A stretch of 64,000 nt of DNA from an uncultured bacterium (GTDB lineage Bacteria; Oederibacteriota; JAAXVQ01; JAUVAV01). Below the pieces are notes generated by a model, which worked only from the letters and a program-made list of their open reading frames with translations, made no database searches and was not told where the DNA came from. The stretch covers positions 885,211-949,210 of the forward strand of contig CAVQBK010000003.1 of the NCBI GenBank assembly GCA_963710755.1. The letters are read 5' to 3'. Below are positions 1 through 8,524 of the stretch, piece after piece. The position numbers and the translations under genes are program-made. The first letter of the stretch is position 1, and every line of letters starts with the position of its first letter.

Positions 1-1869
1 GATAGCACGGGCGCGCGGATCACTTTTTGATCTTTTATATCCACTATATTGTATTTCAATTAAATTATTTCCCGATATCCATTTGGCATTTCCCAGATCA
101 ATTTTATAATCATGCCAACCTTTGTTTATATATTCTTGAGTAATTAATTCATTATTGACATACAATTTTATTTGTTGAGGTTTTATAGGCATGACACGCA
201 TAAACAGATATTTTGGTTTTTTATCTTTTAACGGTATTACTAATGTTGATTCTTTTCCCAATCCCCAAACGAAATCAACTCCATCATCTGCTTTTTCATC
301 GCCGCTCCATCCTTTAGCCAAAAAACTTCTTGCTGTAATTTTACCGAAATCTACCTGTGTACAATTATTATTTTGACGGGCACTTGCCACAGCTAGTTGT
401 ACTGCAAATGCATCAAAAAAAACAGCTTTGGTAGAACTCTTCATTCTTTGCTCAAACCATTTGCGATCAGTAGAATTTAATCGCTTGAAGAATCCCCCTT
501 GGATCCCACCGTCTACAAACCAATATTCCTTGTAACAGCTTTGTTTGATTATTTCTGAAATTATATTTGTATTTGAAATATTCATTACTGGCATATTAAT
601 TTGGCCAGTTTGTTGTTCCAGATAATATTCGAAACAATCTTTCACCCAGCCATCTAAACAAAATATTGCAGATTGCGGATCCGCGTTTTTAAGAACATAC
701 TGTACAGATAAAGCCCATTCTGGTTTTTTTTTGCCAAATAATTTATCATCGGTGATTTTATAATTAAGCAAGGCCGGTAAAAATATCAAAATGCTCAAAG
801 TAATTCCGGTCACAATTTTTAAAATGTTGAACCTTGAAAATTCCCATTTATTATAAATTAATTTCAAGATCATATTTGTTGCCTCAGATATACTACTAGC
901 CATTAAAAGCAGAACAAGTGGTTGCAAAAATATTAATTGGCGAAAATGGAAAAAATATCCGCGCCATTTATCTAAGCTTAAAACAACTCCTCCGGCAAAT
1001 AGGACAGACAAAAATATAAACCAATTATTTATTTTGACTTCTTTATCTTTATTAAATAATCCAAAAATAATTAGTGCACCTGGCCAAACGGAATAGCCAA
1101 CAATCAGGACTTTAATGATCTGATGCCAGCTGACATTAAATGTGCTATGAAACTCGCTATGCGGTTTATAAAATATAGCAGCAGGTAAAAATACCAATAA
1201 TGAAATTAAACAAGAATAAAAAAAATATTTTATCTTATGGAAATCAATATTGTGGGTTACTATTGAATTTCGAATTGACTTTACGCTTAAAATTAATCCA
1301 TGGCACAACAGCACAATCAAGGTATAAAAATGCTGATAACTGGAAACTATAGTTATAATAGAATAAATAATCCAATCTTTTTTTTGATTATTATTTATAG
1401 CTTTGAAAAAAGCCCACCAATGCAAAGTAGTTAAAAAGACAAAAACAGCATAAAATCTTGCTTCCTGGGCATACTGAATTTGCAGCACAGAAATAGCCAT
1501 TAAAATCATTGCAATCCATGCAATGGCTTTTTCAGGTTTGTAAATTTGTCTAGCTAAATAAAATGTTGAAATTACAGCTAAATTGCTAAAAATAAACGCG
1601 TGTAACCTTACCCAGAATTCACTATTGCCAAATTGCAAAAATAAATGCATTATTAAATAATCTAGAGGCAAAGCGGCAGCATGGTACCTGACATTTAATA
1701 ATAGGCCTTTCAAATCCATTTGAGCTACCATCATTTGCCTGATTTCATCGATCCACAAATTTTCTGTTGTTAGCCCATGTAACCGCAGTAAAAACCCTAT
1801 TAGGAAAATGATCATCAAAGGTGTTTTTTCATTTTTAAAGATCTCAGATGTTTTCACTGAATTCTCCAT
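1..1869 (-). CDS. GT39/PMT_2 (ArnT-like) family membrane glycosyltransferase with a C-terminal soluble extension. It is partial and the C-terminus runs off the window start.
   Basis: Hand translation of the minus strand from the ATG at 1869..1867 gives MENSVKTSEIFKNEKTPLMIIFLIGFLLRLHGLTTENLWIDEIRQMMVAQ... It stays open to position 1, and codon checks at 60, 960 and 1440 were consistent. The N-terminal pattern (short cytosolic start, TM helix, DE motif in the first loop, many TM helices) is typical of GT-C/ArnT/PMT-like transferases. It is absent from the ORF track because no stop lies inside the window. The locus is very AT-rich compared with the rest of the window. Confidence 0.6.
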   Translation of the reverse strand, partial: MENSVKTSEIFKNEKTPLMIIFLIGFLLRLHGLTTENLWIDEIRQMMVAQMDLKGLLLNVRYHAAALPLDYLIMHLFLQFGNSEFWVRLHAFIFSNLAVISTFYLARQIYKPEKAIAWIAMILMAISVLQIQYAQEARFYAVFVFLTTLHWWAFFKAINNNQKKDWIIYSIITIVSSYQHFYTLIVLLCHGLILSVKSIRNSIVTHNIDFHKIKYFFYSCLISLLVFLPAAIFYKPHSEFHSTFNVSWHQIIKVLIVGYSVWPGALIIFGLFNKDKEVKINNWFIFLSVLFAGGVVLSLDKWRGYFFHFRQLIFLQPLVLLLMASSISEATNMILKLIYNKWEFSRFNILKIVTGITLSILIFLPALLNYKITDDKLFGKKKPEWALSVQYVLKNADPQSAIFCLDGWVKDCFEYYLEQQTGQINMPVMNISNTNIISEIIKQSCYKEYWFVDGGIQGGFFKRLNSTDRKWFEQRMKSSTKAVFFDAFAVQLAVASARQNNNCTQVDFGKITARSFLAKGWSGDEKADDGVDFVWGLGKESTLVIPLKDKKPKYLFMRVMPIKPQQIKLYVNNELITQEYINKGWHDYKIDLGNAKWISGNNLIEIQYSGYKRSKSDPRARAI

Positions 1870-1913
1870 TATGAAAATATATTTCATTAATCAGTTGTCT
1901 TAATTTTGACATG

Positions 1914-1938
1914 AAACAAACCCTCCTTTGGGTGAGGG
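1914..1938 (-). terminator. Putative intrinsic terminator for the minus-strand secreted-protein gene
   Basis: The inverted repeat CCCTC..GAGGG (1921-1938) reads on the minus strand as ccctcacccaaaggaggg followed by tttgttt. It sits about 160 nt downstream of the stop of the 2101..2967 gene. Confidence 0.4.
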
Positions 1939-2100
1939 ATATTTCATTATTTTCAAATCTAGATATCCCGATAATTGAATGACCAAAATGGAACCTTGGA
2001 ATAAATTATCGGGGACAAACCAAATGGATATAGTTATTCAAACGGGTAGAACGAATTTCGCGAAAGTTTACTTTAATTTAGACAAATTTATAATTGCTTA

Positions 2101-2967
2101 TTATCTGTAATTGACCTGAACAACCATAATATGTTGGTCAGTCTTGAAGTCAACACCATAATGTACAACGTCGAGCTGTAATCTAAGGTTATATGTTCCT
2201 TTGGAACAATCCCGACCGACCAAAATAAAAGCAGTTCCCAAATCATTGGTGCGATGACTTCTTACCGCCGACATATCCGTCCAAGAATTATTTATATACA
2301 ATGTCCATGTGGCAACCGCGTCTGTGGCCTGCAAACTGTTAAAATTACCTTTAGCCATAATTATTAAGTAACCATCATAATCGAGAGTGATGTTTTCATT
2401 AAACAAGGTGATGCTTTGGGTTTGAGTATGGGTTATAGGATTGTGATAAGAATTGTAACTTTTAGTTACGGTATGTGGTTGAATTTTAGTAGTCGTAATT
2501 GCATTATCTTGGATTTTCGCTGTTGTTATTGCGGAATCACTGATTTTTGCGGTGACTACTGAACTATCCACCAGTTTTGCAGTTGATATCGTCCCATCCG
2601 CCACATTCATGGCATAAGCTGCGCTGTCAAGCTTGAGGCGGGGGCTAAGGGGCGTGCCGTCGGTGTTACTGGTTACAGCCAACCAAAGGGGCTGATTGAA
2701 AATGGTAGCATCATTAAAAGGGCCGAGTTCCAGGCTGTAATAGCCATTTTTGACGGCAACGTTATAGGCGGTTGTGGGCCAGACCATTTGACCACCTGTC
2801 TCGGCATTCCAAAGTTCAAACGTCAATCCATAGCTGGGATTATCAGGTATCGGATTTCCGCTCAAATCCGTCAACCGCCCCTGGAAATGGATGGTTTTGG
2901 GAATGTCGGCTTGGGTTATACTAAAGGTTGCAAAGAGGATAAGAAGTAATGATAGTGTTTTTTTCAT
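2101..2967 (-). CDS. Secreted protein of unknown function with heptad-like TAKIxDxAIT repeats
   Basis: 288-aa ORF with signal peptide MKKTLSLLLILFATFSITQA, a conserved N-terminal module (IHFQGRLTDLSGNPIPDNPSYGLTFELWNAETGG...) and a repeat stretch (TAKLVDSSVVTAKISDSAITTAKIQDNAITTTKIQ). A paralogous copy lies immediately upstream. Confidence 0.6.
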   Translation of the reverse strand: MKKTLSLLLILFATFSITQADIPKTIHFQGRLTDLSGNPIPDNPSYGLTFELWNAETGGQMVWPTTAYNVAVKNGYYSLELGPFNDATIFNQPLWLAVTSNTDGTPLSPRLKLDSAAYAMNVADGTISTAKLVDSSVVTAKISDSAITTAKIQDNAITTTKIQPHTVTKSYNSYHNPITHTQTQSITLFNENITLDYDGYLIIMAKGNFNSLQATDAVATWTLYINNSWTDMSAVRSHRTNDLGTAFILVGRDCSKGTYNLRLQLDVVHYGVDFKTDQHIMVVQVNYR

Positions 2968-2996
2968 TAGAAAAATCTCCGTTGGAAATAAAATTC

Positions 2997-3894
2997 TTAC
3001 TTATAAATGGCTTGAATTATCAATTTTGAAAATCTGATTTCAACAGGGTTATTTATTGACGTTGTTTGAACAACACCTTTAATATTTACTGTACCGGGTG
3101 AAAGATCTCTTTCTACCATTAAAGTTGTACCGTCCACATCAGACGTTCGATTAATTTGGCGTTCTGTCCAATCATCAAAGCCATTGTTAATTGACAATTT
3201 CCATGAAATTGTTCCTGCACTGCAACTGTGACTATGAAGTTCAGATCTAAATGTTACTATTAAAGCAGCATTTTTAGTTATATTCAAATTAACATCAAAA
3301 AGATTGTAAGTAGTAGCGGTAGTAATATTATAAGAATTGTTCACATATTCCCATACTTGAGTCGTTGCATTAGTTGCTATTTTATCCATTGTGACGGCAC
3401 CATTATTTATCTTTGCCGTTGTTACTGCATTATCTTGAATTTTCGCTGTTGTTATTGCGGAATCACTGATTTTTGCGGCTGATTACCGAACTATCCACAA
3501 GTTTTGCAGTTGATATCGCCCCATCTGCCACATTTAAGGCATAAGCGGAGCTATCGAGTTTAATACGTGGGCTTAGGGGCGTACCATCAGTATTGCTGGT
3601 TACAGCCAACCAAAGGGGCTGATTGAAAATGGTAGCATCATTAAAAGGCCCGAGTTCCAGGCTGTAATAGCCATTTTTGACGGCAACGTTATAGGCGGTT
3701 GTGGGCCAGACCATTTGACCACCTGTCTCGGCATTCCAAAGTTCAAACGTCAATCCATAGCTGGGATTATCAGGTATCGGATTTCCGCTCAAATCCGTCA
3801 ACCGCCCCTGGAAATGGATGGTTTTGGGAATATCGGCCTGGGCTAAGCTAAAAGTAGCAAAGATCAGCAAGCATAATACAAACAATTTCTTCAT
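2997..3894 (-). pseudogene. Frameshifted tandem paralog of the 2101..2967 secreted protein (ORFs 3463..3894 and 2997..3389)
   Basis: The first 125 aa of ORF 3463..3894 are about 95% identical to the downstream paralog. A 1-bp insertion (gcggCtgattaccgaac versus gcggtgactactgaac) breaks the frame at the repeat stretch. The rest continues as ORF 2997..3389 with a divergent C-terminal domain. Confidence 0.5.
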
Positions 3895-3939
3895 AATTCA
3901 AAGTCTCCCTTTATAAAAATTAAATTCCATACAACAAAA

Positions 3940-4620
3940 GTAAACCTCACGCCAAGTCCGTCTGGAGTTAAACCTAAACCCTTTAAAGACGGAAAGAAAA
4001 ATCTGTCTCACGCCAAGCTCGCCAAGCCGCAAAGAAAGATTAAATCGTTCTGGGGTTAAACCTAAACCCTTTAAAGACGGAAAGAAAGATCTGTCTCACG
4101 CCAAGCACGCCAAGCCGCAAAGAAAGATTAAATCGTTCTGGGGTTAAACCTAAACCCTTTAAAGACGGAAAGAAAGATCTGTCTCACGCCAAGCACGCCA
4201 AGCCGCAAAGAAAGATTAAATCGTTCTGGGGTTAAACCTAAACCCTTTAAAGACGGAAAGAAAGATCTGTCTCACGCCAAGCACGCCAAGCCGCAAAGAA
4301 AGATTAAATCGTTCTGGGGTTAAACCTAAACCCTTTAAAGACGGAAAGAAAGATCTGTCTCACGCCAAGCACGCCAAGCCGCAAAGAAAGATTAAATCGT
4401 TCTGGGGTTAAACCTAAACCCTTTAAAGACGGAAAGAAAGATCTGTCTCACGCCAAGCACGCCAAGCCGCAAAGAAAGATTAAATCGCTCTGGGGTTAAA
4501 TCCAAAACCCCGTAAAAACGGAAACAAAAGATCTGTCTCACGCCAAGCACGCCAAGCCGCAAAGAGAGATAAAATCCTGCTATGGTAAAAACCCTTAGTC
4601 CATTTAAAGTTCTTTTTTTA
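3940..4620. repeat. Tandem array of about 7.5 copies of an 88-bp unit, near-identical, with the last copies degenerate
   Basis: ctgtctcacgccaag recurs at 4003, 4091, 4179, 4267, 4355, 4443 and 4533, so the period is 88 (90 for the last). Each unit is tcacgccaagcacgccaagccgcaaagaaagattaaatcgttctggggttaaacctaaaccctttaaagacggaaagaaagatctg. There are no unique spacers, so this is not CRISPR. Confidence 0.9.
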
Positions 4621-4730
4621 CCTTTGCGCCTTTGCGTGCTTTGCGTGAGACATGTTTTAAAAATATTTTTCACGCCAAGCTCGCCTGCCCTCCGGGCACA
4701 GGCAGCCGCAAATAAAGATCAGATGCTAAA
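4621..4730. repeat. Structured repeat element E1: an inverted copy of the 30-bp array core followed by a conserved tail motif
   Basis: cctttgcgcctttgcgtgctttgcgtgagaca (4622-4653) is the near-reverse-complement of the array core tgtctcacgccaagcacgccaagccgcaaag about 50 nt upstream, predicting a long hairpin. It is followed by gttttaaaaa...cacgccaagctcgcctgccctccgggcacaggcagccg. The same architecture recurs at 6090-6262. Confidence 0.7.
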
Positions 4731-4738
4731 AATATGAA

Positions 4739-5116
4739 CTACAGGCCATTGACTACTCTATGAATACCATCTTTTATTAGATTTTCACCGAAATTTATAA
4801 GTAGACCAAGTTTTTTATTACTTAACCTCAAGTATGTTAATAACTGCTTTTTGTGGACTTGAGCGATTTTTTCGATGGACTTCAATTCAACGATGACTGA
4901 ATTATTGACCATTAAATCCGCTCTAAATCCTTGGTCAAAAATGTGGTTGTTGTACTCAATTGGTATTGCCTTTTGAGTATGAACATCAAAACCAAGATTT
5001 ATAAGTTCATTTGCTAAAATCGTTTCATAAACTGATTCCAACAATCCCGGCCCAATATTTTTATGAATAGAATAAACTTTATCCACTATACTTCTAGCAA
5101 TTTCATTTTCATTCAT
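4739..5116 (-). CDS. GxxExxY family protein (PD-(D/E)XK nuclease-like fold)
   Basis: 125 aa with the signature GPGLLESVYE (GxxExxY). This family is recurrently multi-copy and repeat-associated. The gene overlaps the upstream gene's stop by 1 nt (ATGA). Confidence 0.75.
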   Translation of the reverse strand: MNENEIARSIVDKVYSIHKNIGPGLLESVYETILANELINLGFDVHTQKAIPIEYNNHIFDQGFRADLMVNNSVIVELKSIEKIAQVHKKQLLTYLRLSNKKLGLLINFGENLIKDGIHRVVNGL

Positions 5117-6042
5117 TATTTCGGCTTCTCTTTTGTGCCTTGGCGTCCTGCTTGTGCCCGGGACGGGTAGGCGTGAGACAAGTTCTTATTCAGTTTTGAA
5201 GGAAGATAATTTTTGCCGGTAACTACTTTGTTACCCGTATCTGCCTCAAACACCAAACGAGATTTTTTGGCCACAGCTCCTCCTTTTTTACCGGCATCGG
5301 CATTCTGATCCAATCCCGTTGCATTTGTTCCTTCAGCAATCTGTCTTGTGGAAAGCTCTGCCAGTGCCGTAAAAATTAATTCCGCTTCACTCATATGATC
5401 GCGCAGATTTTGAGATTTTAGGCCCTTCAGTTCTTTGTGTTCCTTTACGGAAAGACCGCTCCATTCCTGGTGGATAATAGTGGTTAAAATTGCAAATTCA
5501 TCCTCTGTGCCAACATCATGGGTTTTCCAATAATCGGTCAGTTTATTCCGGGTTTCCTGACCCATCATACGCTGTTGAATCCACTTATCGCTGCGGCCAT
5601 GTTTTTTCCAATATTCTCTTGCCCGGTCCAGGGAGCGGGCGGGATCGGACATGTCCTGGATACGTTCATAGCCTACCTTAGCCAGCCAGAGTTTGATTGG
5701 TTCCGCTTTTGAGCTTGGCACGGACTGTACAAGCCGAAGAATAGTCTCGGGGGAAGCCACGTCGGTAAGGCGCATCTTCCCGTCATCAGCCGGCATTTTC
5801 AACTGGTGACAATTTGTCACCAGTTGACTTCCTTCTTTTTTCAGCCGTTCTTTCAATTTATTCCAGTATTTTCTGGCCGTTTGATAATCGGGCTGTTGAA
5901 TCAGGACCTGAATAATATCGACGACCGAAAAATACCAAGTTTCAGTTTTTTCATCATAGATCCGCCGGATTTGGCGGTCTTCAAATAGTGCGACGCTTGT
6001 TTTCATCATAAAAACCCTTTTTTCAAGACAGGGGTTTAACAT
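5116..6042 (-). CDS. DinD/RhuM-like protein with an N-terminal Bro-N (KilA-N-like) domain
   Basis: 308 aa. The N-terminus FEDRQIRRIYDEKTETWYFSVVDIIQVL...KLWLAKVG fits the Bro-N pattern. The C-terminal helical region resembles DNA-damage-inducible protein D-type proteins. A partial copy of the flanking repeat motif (cgcctacccgtcccgggcacaagcag, about 5140-5180) lies inside the 3-prime end of the gene. Confidence 0.55.
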   Translation of the reverse strand: MLNPCLEKRVFMMKTSVALFEDRQIRRIYDEKTETWYFSVVDIIQVLIQQPDYQTARKYWNKLKERLKKEGSQLVTNCHQLKMPADDGKMRLTDVASPETILRLVQSVPSSKAEPIKLWLAKVGYERIQDMSDPARSLDRAREYWKKHGRSDKWIQQRMMGQETRNKLTDYWKTHDVGTEDEFAILTTIIHQEWSGLSVKEHKELKGLKSQNLRDHMSEAELIFTALAELSTRQIAEGTNATGLDQNADAGKKGGAVAKKSRLVFEADTGNKVVTGKNYLPSKLNKNLSHAYPSRAQAGRQGTKEKPK

Positions 6043-6059
6043 GTTGAACCCCTACAGCT

Positions 6060-6262
6060 TATCTCACCAATAGCGGCAGAGCCGGAATAAAAAGATGCCT
6101 CACGTCAAGTCCGCCAAGCCGCAAAGAAAGATTGAGATATTAAGAAATAATTTCTTATAAAAAATGTTTTATCTTACCTTTGCGCCTTTGCGTGCTTAGC
6201 GAGAAAGATGTTTTAAAAAAACATCGCGCTAAGACGCCTCCCCTGTGAGCACAAGCAGCCGT
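6060..6262. repeat. Structured repeat element E2: direct core, about 45-nt AT-rich spacer, inverted core, conserved tail
   Basis: cctcacgtcaagtccgccaagccgcaaagaaagat (about 6095-6130) and its inverted partner acctttgcgcctttgcgtgcttagcgagaaagatg (about 6173-6207) are followed by gttttaaaaaaacatcgcgctaagacgcctcccctgtgagcacaagcagccg. It is collinear with E1, and the left arm ttattccggctctgccg (6066-6090) has an inverted copy at 29008-29030. Confidence 0.7.
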
Positions 6263-6265
6263 TTG

Positions 6266-6859
6266 TTATTTAATAATCGCCAGCCGTTTAATTAACTTGG
6301 TGGTTTTGCGCTCATTGCTGGCTTTGATCAGCATCAAATACACGCCGTTGGCCATGTTGGACACATTCCAGTTCCAGATATTTTCGCCGGCGGGCATGCT
6401 GTCCCACTGCTTCTCGATCACCAGGCGATGGCCGGTGGTGTAAATCTTAATCTCTACTTTGGCTGGTTCGGCCAGGTGATAGTGAATGTGGGCTTCCGGG
6501 CCGCGGATGGGGTGGGGAGCCGGGTAGACGTACTGCTTGTCGAGCAATTCGCCGTTGAAGCTGCGAATGGGGGTGGCGGTGACCGTCACCGTGGGAGTGA
6601 CCGTCGGAGTCGGTTTGGCAATAAAATAATTATTGAAAAATCCGGCCTGGGTGGAGGTCTGGTTGCTGTAATTCTGGCCCACGGCTGCTTCGCCCATGGA
6701 ACTGATATGGAGGCGCATGCTGTGATTTTGCGCTTGGCCGGTTTGGGTGTTGCCGGCCGTATTGAACAGATATTCATTCAGCTGGTATTGGCCGGATTGA
6801 GCGGCATGCAGCAGCCCGGCAGTGGAGAGAAATAGAAAGGTAAGGATAAATTTTTTCAT
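6266..6859 (-). CDS. Secreted protein with a C-terminal beta-sandwich sorting-domain-like region (T9SS CTD / FlgD-Ig-like)
   Basis: Signal peptide MKKFILTFLFLSTAGLLHA, a TPTVTPTVTVTATP linker, and a C-terminal roughly 80 aa (...VEIKIYTTGHRLVIEKQWDSMPAGENIWNWNVSNMANGVYLMLIKASNERKTTKLIKRLAIIK) resembling Por/T9SS C-terminal sorting domains. Confidence 0.55.
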   Translation of the reverse strand: MKKFILTFLFLSTAGLLHAAQSGQYQLNEYLFNTAGNTQTGQAQNHSMRLHISSMGEAAVGQNYSNQTSTQAGFFNNYFIAKPTPTVTPTVTVTATPIRSFNGELLDKQYVYPAPHPIRGPEAHIHYHLAEPAKVEIKIYTTGHRLVIEKQWDSMPAGENIWNWNVSNMANGVYLMLIKASNERKTTKLIKRLAIIK

Positions 6860-7147
6860 TGGGTCAGCTCCTCTTGGAATGAACGGTAATTATATCAAAA
6901 AAAGGATCAAAGTCAAAGGATTGGAAAAAATCGCCCTTTGGCTGCCAATGATCGTCTTATCATCGGCAGGTTCGCCTTGTATCCACAGGCTGGGTCCTTT
7001 TGAGTGATCAATGGCTTGTAAAAGCATTGGACATGGAGGCGCAGACTGGTCTAATTCAGGAGTAGTTGACCATATAATTATGCAATTGCTCTCTATATAA
7101 TAATATGGTAAAACTCTGAGTCATCATCATTATCCAAGGGAAAGCTA

Positions 7148-8524
7148 ATGTTTAAACGCCGGAACCACATCATCATCACACTGGGCCTAATGGTTATTGA
7201 TTTACTGACGTTAGCCGCGGCTTTTTGGCTGTCTTACTTCTTACGACTGCGGTTGCATTTGTTCGCCAATGTACAGCCCATATCTGATTACTATCTGGCT
7301 TTTGCCGTTTTTACGGTCATTACCCTCTTCTTTTTTGGGCAACAAGGACTTTACCGCGACATCCGCGATCTGTCCATGATCGAGGAGTATGCCAGTATTA
7401 TCAAGTCCCTTACCTATGCTTTTTTAATCGCCTTGGCACTAACCTTTTTCTTCAAATTTTATGAACGGTCGCGGGTACTGGTCTTTCTTTTCTGGGCTTT
7501 GGCCAATTTGTTTGTCATTACCGTTCGTTTCTTTTGGTACCGCTTTTTAAAATTCCTTCATTGGCGGCGCCTGGATCTGCTGAATGTGGCGGTGGTAGGA
7601 TCAGAGCAAAAAAGCAAGGCCGTGCGCCAACTTTTAAAACAGCATCCGCAATTGGGGTACCATATTGTGGCTACGGTGGTGCTGCCCCGGGGTATTTCAC
7701 CTAAAAGCGGAAGCCTGCAGCAAAAGTTGGAACGTGAGATTGTGGCCCGTTTTCAAAAAGGCGAGATCGACGGGGTGATCATCTCCGATTCCGTTAAAAA
7801 TTACCAGCAAACCCTGGAAGTTAATGAATTATTCACGGAATATGAGATTCCGCACCGTAACGTGACCGAAGCTTTTGATCTGACCGGCTTTAAGACGCCG
7901 GCAGGGGAAGGGCTGGAAGGCTTGCTCACCAGTCTCAAAGAAGGTCAGATCGGCGGAGGCTACAAGGTCTTCAAACGCTTTATGGATGAAATTGTTTCCC
8001 TGACTGCATTGCTGGTCACCTTGCCCTTATGGCTGCTGATCATGGCGGCTATCAAACTGGAATCCAAAGGCCCGGTTTTTTTCAAGCAGGAACGGGTGGG
8101 ATATCATGGCCGCAAGTTTTTGATTTACAAATTCCGCTCCATGGTTGTGACTGCACCCCAATATGCCAAAACCCCCAAGGGCACCCATGATCCCAGAATC
8201 ACGGCCCTGGGCCGGATTTTGAGGCGGACCAGTTTGGATGAACTGCCTCAACTCCTCAATGTTATTAAAGGCGACATGAGTCTGGTGGGACCCAGGCCGG
8301 AGATGCCTTTTTTGGTGGAAAAATATAAACCTATTTACCGCTATCGGCTGTTGGTACTCCCCGGAGTCACCGGGCTGTGGCAGGTATCGGGCCGCACGGA
8401 CAAGCCTTTGGAAGAAAACGTTAAATACGACTTGTACTATATAAAAAATCAATCCTTCCTACTCGATCTGGTTATCATTCTGCGCACGGTTCCGGCTGTC
8501 CTGTTCGGCAAAGGAGCTTATTGA
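7148..8524 (+). CDS. Polyprenyl-phosphate hexose-1-phosphate transferase (bacterial sugar transferase, WbaP/WcaJ-like initiating enzyme)
   Basis: 458 aa with N-terminal TM helices and a C-terminal catalytic domain carrying ...KFRSM...DELPQL...KGDMSLVGPRPE... Confidence 0.85.
   Translation: MFKRRNHIIITLGLMVIDLLTLAAAFWLSYFLRLRLHLFANVQPISDYYLAFAVFTVITLFFFGQQGLYRDIRDLSMIEEYASIIKSLTYAFLIALALTFFFKFYERSRVLVFLFWALANLFVITVRFFWYRFLKFLHWRRLDLLNVAVVGSEQKSKAVRQLLKQHPQLGYHIVATVVLPRGISPKSGSLQQKLEREIVARFQKGEIDGVIISDSVKNYQQTLEVNELFTEYEIPHRNVTEAFDLTGFKTPAGEGLEGLLTSLKEGQIGGGYKVFKRFMDEIVSLTALLVTLPLWLLIMAAIKLESKGPVFFKQERVGYHGRKFLIYKFRSMVVTAPQYAKTPKGTHDPRITALGRILRRTSLDELPQLLNVIKGDMSLVGPRPEMPFLVEKYKPIYRYRLLVLPGVTGLWQVSGRTDKPLEENVKYDLYYIKNQSFLLDLVIILRTVPAVLFGKGAY

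Follow-up and report, generated by a model that had tools for sequence, protein, structure and literature searches.

The genes of REP-associated tyrosine transposases (RAYTs), which are HUH Y1 transposases, are flanked by inverted repetitive extragenic palindromic (REP) elements, with doublets lacking an open reading frame (ORF) found nearby; REPs are lineage-specific and occur in hundreds of copies. The attC sites of integrons display the R''/R' consensus RYYYAAC/GTTRRRY and conserve structure, not sequence. In Coxiella, the intervening sequence (IVS) has a length of 428 nt, a 28-bp terminal stem and heptamer repeats before an ORF of ~120 residues, and is excised by RNase III (PMC4990558). 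The phage-defence candidates termed PDCs number 145 and are defined by their embedding in BREX, DISARM or type I restriction-modification (RM) loci (bioRxiv 10.1101/2024.01.29.577857). Here we describe a locus in a 64-kb stretch of DNA from an uncultured bacterium of the Oederibacteriota (GCA_963710755.1, contig CAVQBK010000003.1, positions 885,211 to 949,210; hereafter the window), where a GxxExxY gene and a Bro-N gene are found among heptad repeats. The closest known architecture is the ORF-bearing IVS of 23S ribosomal RNA (rRNA), and the closest analogy at the DNA level the REP/RAYT system.

Anatomy of the GxxExxY unit and its arms

The repeats of the locus belong to a single family of arms, each consisting of two to three CGCAAAG heptads spaced by 1–2 nt, with outer ends TCTCAC/GTGAGA. 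Arms are designated L where they read CGCAAAG and R where they read its reverse complement, and a star denotes an arm carrying an extra insert of ~18–22 nt. Genes, arms, loops and array are all located on the minus strand, while junction cores and palindromes are given without strand. The GxxExxY gene (4739..5116, 125 residues) is enclosed by one inverted arm pair, comprising the left arm L* (5130..5179, insert of ~22 nt) and the right arm R* of the element E1 (4670..4717, insert of 18 nt), which pair in the predicted fold of the window transcript to give a stem that holds the ORF in its loop. In gene orientation the arms are ordered as R*-junction-L-loop-R (element E2), Bro-N, L*, GxxExxY and once more R*-junction-L-loop-R, the latter formed by E1 and the first unit of a tandem array; six further loop-R units and a truncated arm at 3945–3960 follow.

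The R* arm of E2 (6225..6261) begins 4 nt past the stop codon of the neighbouring Por_Secre_tail gene, has no left partner and carries an insert of ~20 nt, TCCCCTGTGAGCACAAGCAG, between CGCC and CCG. A junction core, ATGTTTTAAAAA (6208..6219), separates it from the L arm of E2 (6177..6204, minus-strand reading CTCGCTAAGCACGCAAAGGCGCAAAGG), which pairs with the R arm (6098..6130) across an AT-rich loop (6134..6176, by fold prediction) into an ORF-less hairpin. The identical core recurs in E1 (4652..4663), between R* and the L arm (4621..4651, minus-strand reading GTCTCACGCAAAGCACGCAAAGGCGCAAAGG), and GTTTTAAAA is likewise found 3' of an arm in the Desulfuromusa locus L009. The tandem array (3945..4576) comprises seven 88-bp units (3961–4576) and the truncated eighth arm. 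Each unit consists of one R arm and a 57-nt spacer homologous to the loop of the hairpin present in L196, a locus of the same species, and any unit is able to pair with the single L arm of E1. The units are 97% identical, spacers included; a CRISPR array was ruled out on this ground, the spacers not being unique. A similar insert of ~18–22 nt (…CCC…GGGCACARGCAG) follows CGCC at differing heptads, at 4685–4704, 5140–5168, 6239–6258 and ~5725–5745 of L196. The inserts of L*, of both R* arms and of the L196 R* arm look like a nested micro-insertion targeting the heptad.

An earlier note on this DNA had described E1 and E2 as collinear elements in which an inverted and a direct core could form a stem of ~28 bp, and had recognised a third, partial tail copy within the 3' end of the Bro-N gene. 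These descriptions hold. The extended E1 (4520–4740) and E2 (6085–6270) align collinearly as direct repeats with 79% column identity. The 27-nt inverted core is found only at 4621–4647 and 6177–6203 (no matches in shuffled sequence), while the 30-nt direct core displays 8 matches, all at 4009–4568 and 6101 (none in shuffles). Core pairs fold into stems of ~30 bp, with −52 kcal/mol for E1 (z −6.4) and −34 kcal/mol for E2 (z −5.1). The third copy is the L* arm itself, translated as approximately the last 20 codons of Bro-N. The direct cores of E1 belong to the 88-bp array, which is absent from that description. The note had also suggested a search for further copies: the 64-kb window holds no arm outside 3945–6262, but the arms are widespread across phyla and viral contigs. 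Rfam, at gathering and permissive thresholds, retrieves no relevant family from the window or from 30 related loci, and E1 has no BLAST match in plasmid and phage collections.

Association of the arms with GxxExxY genes across phyla

Scanning a single genome of each species yielded 29 GxxExxY loci, 26 of them full-length, from at least seven phyla (Kiritimatiellota/Verrucomicrobiota, Cyanobacteria, Chloroflexota, Kapaibacteriota, Desulfuromonadota, Planctomycetota and Bacteroidota). In 16 of the 26 full-length loci a regular expression detects two or more heptads on each flank of the gene, no further than 100 nt from its start and stop codons; local alignment identifies an inverted arm pair in 18, and an arm or hairpin lies within 150 nt in 24. 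The left arm usually ends 0–40 nt before the ATG and the right arm usually starts 0–40 nt past the stop codon. The background, estimated from Bro-N loci, is ~1 arm per 50 kb (7 in 355 kb). The arms are strongly tied to GxxExxY genes, across phyla. The CACAAAG form occupies both arms in Bacteroidota, Desulfuromusa and one verrucomicrobial locus (L021), and CGCAGAG, CACAGAG and CACGGAG variants occur elsewhere. Between Pontiellaceae and Nostocales the heptads are near-identical and the ORF DNA aligns at ~69% over 190 nt only; in these alignments conservation is higher in the heptads than in the enclosed gene. The open literature searched yielded no description of the arms. This conserved arm-GxxExxY unit falls outside the frame of the earlier note and is the more interesting result.

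Arm-like sequence also reaches protein databases. GxxExxY representatives at ≤50% identity display extensions at the N or C terminus that resemble translated arms, such as HAETQRRRAK…LCVSASLRE, and extensions of the types …LTQRTQNEAKAQ…, …LCVSASLRE… and …SPRLRVN… are observed in P0303, P0304, P0310, P0314, P0317, P0337, P0372 and others. They are probably gene-calling artefacts derived from arms. ORF-less hairpins adjoin GxxExxY units in L008, L024 and L009. The last of these (1–2916 of the Desulfuromusa metagenome-assembled genome contig JAGGWI010000233.1) contains an array of ~85-nt hairpins of the CACAAAG type between genes, namely a PIN/VapBC pair, a ParE/RelE-like pair, a 75-aa ORF and the GxxExxY gene. 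This arrangement is reminiscent of integron cassette arrays, but the 2.9-kb contig shows no integrase. In L032 (3001–3369) the GxxExxY gene is truncated past residue 33 and a group II intron domain (RF00029, 58 bits) comes next, which may represent an intron insertion into the unit.

Arms are also found in viral DNA, where the exact three-heptad pattern matched 81 contigs, in the form of hairpins, intergenic R-L junctions, tandem arrays (L040, L062, L053) and single arms. Single arms between co-directional genes are sense in 12 cases and antisense in 12; this count rules out left arms as strand-specific 5' leaders of phage genes, and the lack of strand bias points to a DNA-level element. In the IMG/VR contigs L053/L060, L084, L040 and L062, long microsatellite-like NCRCAAAG octamer runs occur, together with arm-plus-spacer arrays and, after them, one opposite arm; the 7 × 88-bp array of the window shares this design.

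The GxxExxY nuclease

The GxxExxY (PDDEXK_3) protein is recognised by TIGR04256 (E 6.6e-41, 139.3 bits against a threshold of 35) and PF13366 (E 3.6e-39, 134.2 bits against 22); the family profiles cover ~116–117 positions and the window protein matches over the full length. Residues G24-L-L-E27-S-V-Y30, D67, E77-L-K79 and Q91xxxY95 are invariant in 44 homologues. The structural model (pLDDT, the predicted local distance difference test, of 94) finds its best fold matches in Cas4 (4ic1, 4r5q), LHK-Exo and lambda exonuclease. The profiles, residues and fold matches agree with the nuclease-like fold proposed earlier, and on the model the protein is a minimal RecB/Cas4-like PD-(D/E)XK nuclease core. 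The RecB/Cas4-type catalytic site is intact, and the nuclease looks active. Membership of Cas4 was rejected: PF01930 scores 17.1 bits against 22.7, the PADLOC Cas4 models reach E values of 0.002–0.006, and the protein contains 0 cysteines in its 125 residues, where an iron–sulphur (Fe-S) cluster needs four. A sequence search of the PDB found no solved relative, and a plasmid protein search returned only distant GxxExxY genes. With 16,399 clusters at 50% identity (E ≤ 1e-3), GxxExxY is among the largest uncharacterised PD-(D/E)XK families.

The Bro-N gene and its relation to GxxExxY

The Bro-N gene (5116..6009) encodes 297 residues from Met-12, which is likely the start, at 6009; the ORF extends to 6042. 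The Bro-N domain named in the earlier note is confirmed at residues 25–122 (PF02498, E 2.7e-7, 31.6 bits against a gathering cut-off of 25.6). Its DinD/RhuM-like label was discarded, with no Virulence_RhuM match in Pfam and no NCBIfam match at E ≤ 0.01. The PADLOC profile PDC-S13 covers residues 14–286 (profile positions 4–273 of 286, E 1.6e-118), phrog_15286 also matches (E 3.3e-85), and more than 485 metagenomic relatives at 70–80% identity mark a large family with good conservation. The commonest neighbours of the homologues, which are frequently located in type I RM loci, are HsdM (7), HsdS (6) and ResIII (3). The literature searched contained no mention of PDC-S13. By its profile match the gene is a single-gene phage-defence candidate, and it would be a passenger in the slot that it occupies.

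The earlier note had read the two genes as an operonic pair on account of a one-base overlap. The overlap is real: the Bro-N stop codon TAA (5118–5116) and the GxxExxY start codon ATG (5116–5114) share one base, as TAATG. Bro-N homologues, however, are 275–286 residues long and end ~12 residues past the NYLPP motif, whereas the tail of the window protein past the NYLPP region, …LSHAYPSRAQAGRQGTKEKPK, is the translated L* arm and lies outside the family profile, which stops at residue 286 of 308. The overlap thus exists because the stop codon proper to Bro-N has been lost and its frame continues into the arm; therefore the apparent operon reflects a lost stop and not a conserved operon. Co-occurrence is equally lacking. 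A hidden Markov model (HMM) search of 80 Bro-N homologue loci (355 kb) detected no GxxExxY gene (0/80), with a positive control in which the gene was detected in 29 of 33 loci, and Bro-N genes are absent from 33 GxxExxY loci (0/33). At the same slot, the related locus L002 carries GxxExxY without Bro-N, and L196 carries neither. Arms are present in only 6 of the 80 Bro-N loci. On these comparisons of sequence a functional pair is refuted.

Two outcomes had been named in advance as counting against the earlier reading, and the outcome is mixed. The expected excess of family co-occurrence did not appear, and E1/E2-like sequences proved widespread, yet tied to GxxExxY rather than to Bro-N. The defence-type reading survives for the Bro-N protein, through PDC-S13, and fails for the two-gene pair. 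The phrase 'selfish or defence-type accessory DNA' was partly right, for two unrelated reasons. In L176 (2965–2987), a three-heptad right-type arm is located 14 nt 5' of the start of a Bro-N/PDC-S13 homologue; genes of this type occasionally land beside arms elsewhere, as in that locus.

Two palindromes accompany the Bro-N gene. One, AGGGGTTNAACATGTTNAACCCCT (6030..6053, from an inverted-repeat search), lies directly upstream of the start and may be an operator or a terminator. The other, GGTGACAAATTGTCACC, is a perfect 17-nt palindrome within the coding sequence (5805..5821, within 5799–5827), where it encodes LVTNCHQ. It is present at ~+185 in 60 of the 80 homologues, and its synonymous sites are ≥90% conserved compared with ~50–70% elsewhere in the gene, which suggests a nucleotide-level element inside the gene, for example an operator or target site. 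Related palindromes, GGTTACAAAATGTAACC, are found upstream of some Bro-N homologues.

Variation and inheritance of the slot

The repeats and both genes occupy a slot between the Por_Secre_tail gene (6266..6859; C-terminal sorting domain of the type IX secretion system), which is its conserved left anchor, and a gene of the secreted 'DIPKTIxFQGRLTD' family (3463..3894), its right anchor. Por_Secre_tail orthologues anchor the comparison with L002, L196, L199, L201, L202 and L203. In L196, where the Por_Secre_tail protein is 99% identical, the slot holds a single L-loop-R* hairpin in place of the E2, Bro-N, GxxExxY, E1 and array of the window, in agreement with the accessory nature that had been assigned to this DNA. 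L002 (Por ~50% identical) displays a clean L-GxxExxY-R unit, L201 and L203 contain nothing, L199 other hairpins and L202 an MNT/HepT toxin-antitoxin pair. Since its content varies among relatives, the slot is a hot spot and the content of the window a strain-specific gain, which is flanked by direct copies of R*-junction-L-loop-R.

Outside this slot, comparison of flanking genes indicates that GxxExxY units are old and stably inherited. The flanks are orthologous within Nostocales and within Pontiellaceae. In all eight Pontiellaceae loci (L007, L010–L014, L208 and L205, from the cultured Pontiella desulfatans, GCA_900890425.1) the unit is positioned precisely between the stop codon of trpE and the ribosome-binding site of trpG, in operon orientation. 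No 'empty' trpE-trpG junction was found, L205 and L208 carrying the unit like the six prior loci. Of the hallmarks of a MITE, inverted repeats are present, and target-site duplications were not obvious by eye at the L002 or Pontiellaceae junctions. Relative to L017 (2960–3460), L022 (2960–3450, Nostoc sp. B(2019)) carries the GxxExxY ORF in inverted orientation, between the same arms and at the orthologous site, an arrangement that fits recombination between arms.

Proposed mechanism and alternative explanations

On balance we lean, if only slightly, towards reading the locus as a strain-variable slot that holds one arm-repeat family, a GxxExxY unit and a captured Bro-N candidate. A single CGCAAAG-arm family would have filled the slot between the Por_Secre_tail and secreted-protein genes, and the GxxExxY gene within its inverted arm pair (L* and the R* of E1) is the standard form of the GxxExxY family in many phyla. 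The left arm carries an AAGG(A) ribosome-binding site and the unit leaves no room for a promoter; therefore it is probably read from host transcripts, which at this locus would mean expression by read-through. The arms would then pair in vivo and loop the ORF out, as in ORF-bearing 23S rRNA IVSs, and the stem might undergo RNase III-type processing. At the DNA level the arms would serve as recombination substrates, and their recombination could account for the hairpins that lack an ORF (E2, and E1 together with the first array unit), the seven-fold amplification of arm and loop, and the acquisition of additional DNA between two direct composite R*-junction-L-loop-R copies. Bro-N, an unrelated PDC-S13 candidate, would have been captured in the slot, lost its stop codon, extended by ~20 codons into L* and come to end at TAATG. 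The stem is consistent with folding predictions, as all eight Pontiellaceae transcripts fold with 22–32 pairs between left and right arms and the RNAalifold consensus comprises 25 pairs (−29.9 kcal/mol), A-U being swapped to U-A beside heptad 1.

Several observations weigh against this reading. Covariation at one pair only, beside heptad 1, is weak proof of an RNA stem. Arm pairing amounts to 84% within hairpins compared with 78% for arms taken from different loci, with no excess at heptad position 4 or at the spacers; the complementarity is imperfect and not clearly selected. Neither the window nor the 30 GxxExxY loci contain an rRNA match. Viral contigs bearing arms contain no GxxExxY gene in 740 kb, and the arms are thus independent of any GxxExxY copy linked to them. 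The loci sampled are relatives at 49–76% identity and not the whole family. With only 79% identity between E1 and E2, any duplication or integration is not recent, and no recombinase is encoded within 5 kb of the locus. Recognition of the heptads may rest mostly on their sequence, and the GxxExxY nuclease could itself be the recognising protein.

Such recognition is central to a REP/RAYT-like cycle, in which the nuclease would recognise the heptad arms as DNA, cut or copy them and maintain or spread ORF-less hairpins, the stems being by-products and E1, E2 and the array non-autonomous products. The layout, which matches that of RAYT genes between inverted REPs and the ORF-less doublets in their vicinity, the conservation of arm sequence rather than complementarity, the absence of strand bias in single arms and the intact active site all speak for it. 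However, the enclosed enzyme is a PD-(D/E)XK nuclease instead of an HUH Y1 transposase, the arm sequence is common to several phyla, viral contigs carry arms without the gene, the 64-kb window holds no further copies, and the units seem vertically inherited and static over long times. The cycle overlaps the best explanation, with which it is compatible, and we regard it as rather unlikely. Site-specific recombination of the integron type is quite improbable. The hairpins would be attC-like, and Bro-N and GxxExxY would have entered as a circular cassette at the ATGTTTTAAAAA junction. The strain-specific insertion is indeed flanked by the direct repeats E2 and E1 with their identical 12-nt junction core, and L009 displays toxin-antitoxin and GxxExxY genes split by ~85-nt hairpins. 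Yet no integrase or recombinase is found within 5 kb or among the 25 commonest of the 95 Pfam families matched by window ORFs. The outer boxes TTAAAAC / GTTTTAA, compared by eye, misfit the attC consensus, the arm sequence is conserved across phyla, and in most loci the ORF lies inside a hairpin rather than between hairpins. An attC identity was ruled out on the core boxes and the lack of an integrase nearby.

Commonplace intergenic elements of the host, for instance bidirectional terminators or messenger RNA (mRNA) stabilisers with no special gene link, would account for the A- and T-rich flanks of the stems and for the hairpins between many unrelated genes in viral contigs. They would leave unexplained the strong cross-phylum association with GxxExxY and the unit in the trpE-trpG gap, a position at which a terminator would do harm; moreover, stems of ~30 bp far exceed usual intrinsic terminators and were not called by the terminator scan. 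We hold this explanation to be highly improbable. A true two-gene defence or abortive-infection system, in which Bro-N would sense or regulate and the GxxExxY nuclease would be the effector, is scarcely credible. The genes are adjacent, co-oriented and overlapping at TAATG, Bro-N matches a defence candidate and the nuclease site is intact, but the two do not co-occur in either direction (0/80 and 0/33), L002 has GxxExxY alone and L196 neither gene at the slot, PDC-S13 is defined as a single-gene candidate, and the overlap stems from read-through into the arm.

From the favoured reading of the locus a wider proposal can be drawn, which we put forward tentatively and consider doubtful. GxxExxY would be the protein of an ancient cross-phylum selfish element whose conserved CGCAAAG-heptad arms loop the unit out of the transcript, so that it does no harm within operons, and seed intergenic hairpins as recombination hot spots that capture accessory and defence genes, PDC-S13 in this case, an mRNA counterpart of the rRNA IVS combined with a REP/RAYT-like DNA cycle. 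If the loop-out, or the action of the nuclease on arms as its substrates, were true, it would explain the persistence of GxxExxY genes in housekeeping operons and why short dispersed hairpins mark variable sites that accept defence genes. Independently of this, a false lead, the Bro-N and GxxExxY defence pair, is removed, and a very large nuclease family of unknown function gains a testable context in the form of an arm partner motif, a fixed anatomy and a trp-operon unit in the cultured Pontiella desulfatans. Translated arms inflate ORF calls, as in the Bro-N tail and the GxxExxY extensions in databases, and annotation pipelines could mask them.

Genomic surroundings

From 6859 to 3463, all on the minus strand, the order is Por_Secre_tail, E2, the upstream palindrome, Bro-N, GxxExxY, E1, the tandem array and the secreted-protein gene. 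Downstream paralogues of the latter occupy 2101–2967 and 2997–3389. An independent short-read assembly (L001) displays an identical layout, its contig ending at the tandem array. The source organism is a relative of candidate division FCPU426. A sigma-70-like promoter, TTGACT-16-TATAAT with TG, is located 5' of the Por_Secre_tail gene (6889..6916, minus strand; an 11/12 consensus match only). All other promoter-like sites in 3300–7300 reach 9/12, and this is the only strong promoter-like site that could drive transcription across the locus. Positions 1–7000 of the window have a G+C content of 0.31–0.48, compared with 0.50–0.58 across most of the remainder, and constitute a variable surface-protein region adjoining a polysaccharide-synthesis cluster. 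The paralogous 'DIPKTI…QGRLTD' genes of this region vary in length and number relative to L196.

Comparison with known systems

The GxxExxY protein resembles Cas4 and RecB in fold and in the motif set E…D…ExK…QxxxY. It differs in its size of 125 residues and in the absence of cysteine, and hence of an Fe-S cluster; the window also provides no CRISPR-Cas context, and the sequence matches remain under the family cut-offs. The Bro-N protein compares with PDC-S13 through the HsdM, HsdS and ResIII genes beside its homologues, as expected of candidates embedded in type I RM loci. In contrast, the window gene is not embedded in an RM system and its product displays a repeat-derived tail of ~20 residues. 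Integron arrays share with these loci the imperfect hairpins between small accessory genes, including toxin-antitoxin pairs (L009), but in the arms the sequence is conserved too, not the structure alone.

Similarly to the REP/RAYT system and its REPINs, a small nuclease-type gene is flanked by inverted short repeats, ORF-less inverted doublets form hairpins nearby, and the repeats occur in clusters and tandem arrays. In contrast to REPs, the heptad motif of the arms is cross-phylum and its copies in the 64-kb window are confined to one locus. The IVSs of 23S rRNA, known from Coxiella and Leptospira, enclose an ORF for the S23p four-helix-bundle protein. The GxxExxY units instead enclose a PD-(D/E)XK nuclease, are inserted between protein genes (0/30 loci in rRNA) and have an arm sequence conserved across phyla; with no rRNA flanking any unit, membership of the rRNA IVSs was ruled out. 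The likeness to them lies in the following features: a unit of ~430–480 nt, terminal inverted repeats forming a stem of ~28 bp, heptamer repeats just before a loop ORF of ~120 residues, no promoter of its own and a host transcript that is kept intact at the insertion (PMC4990558).

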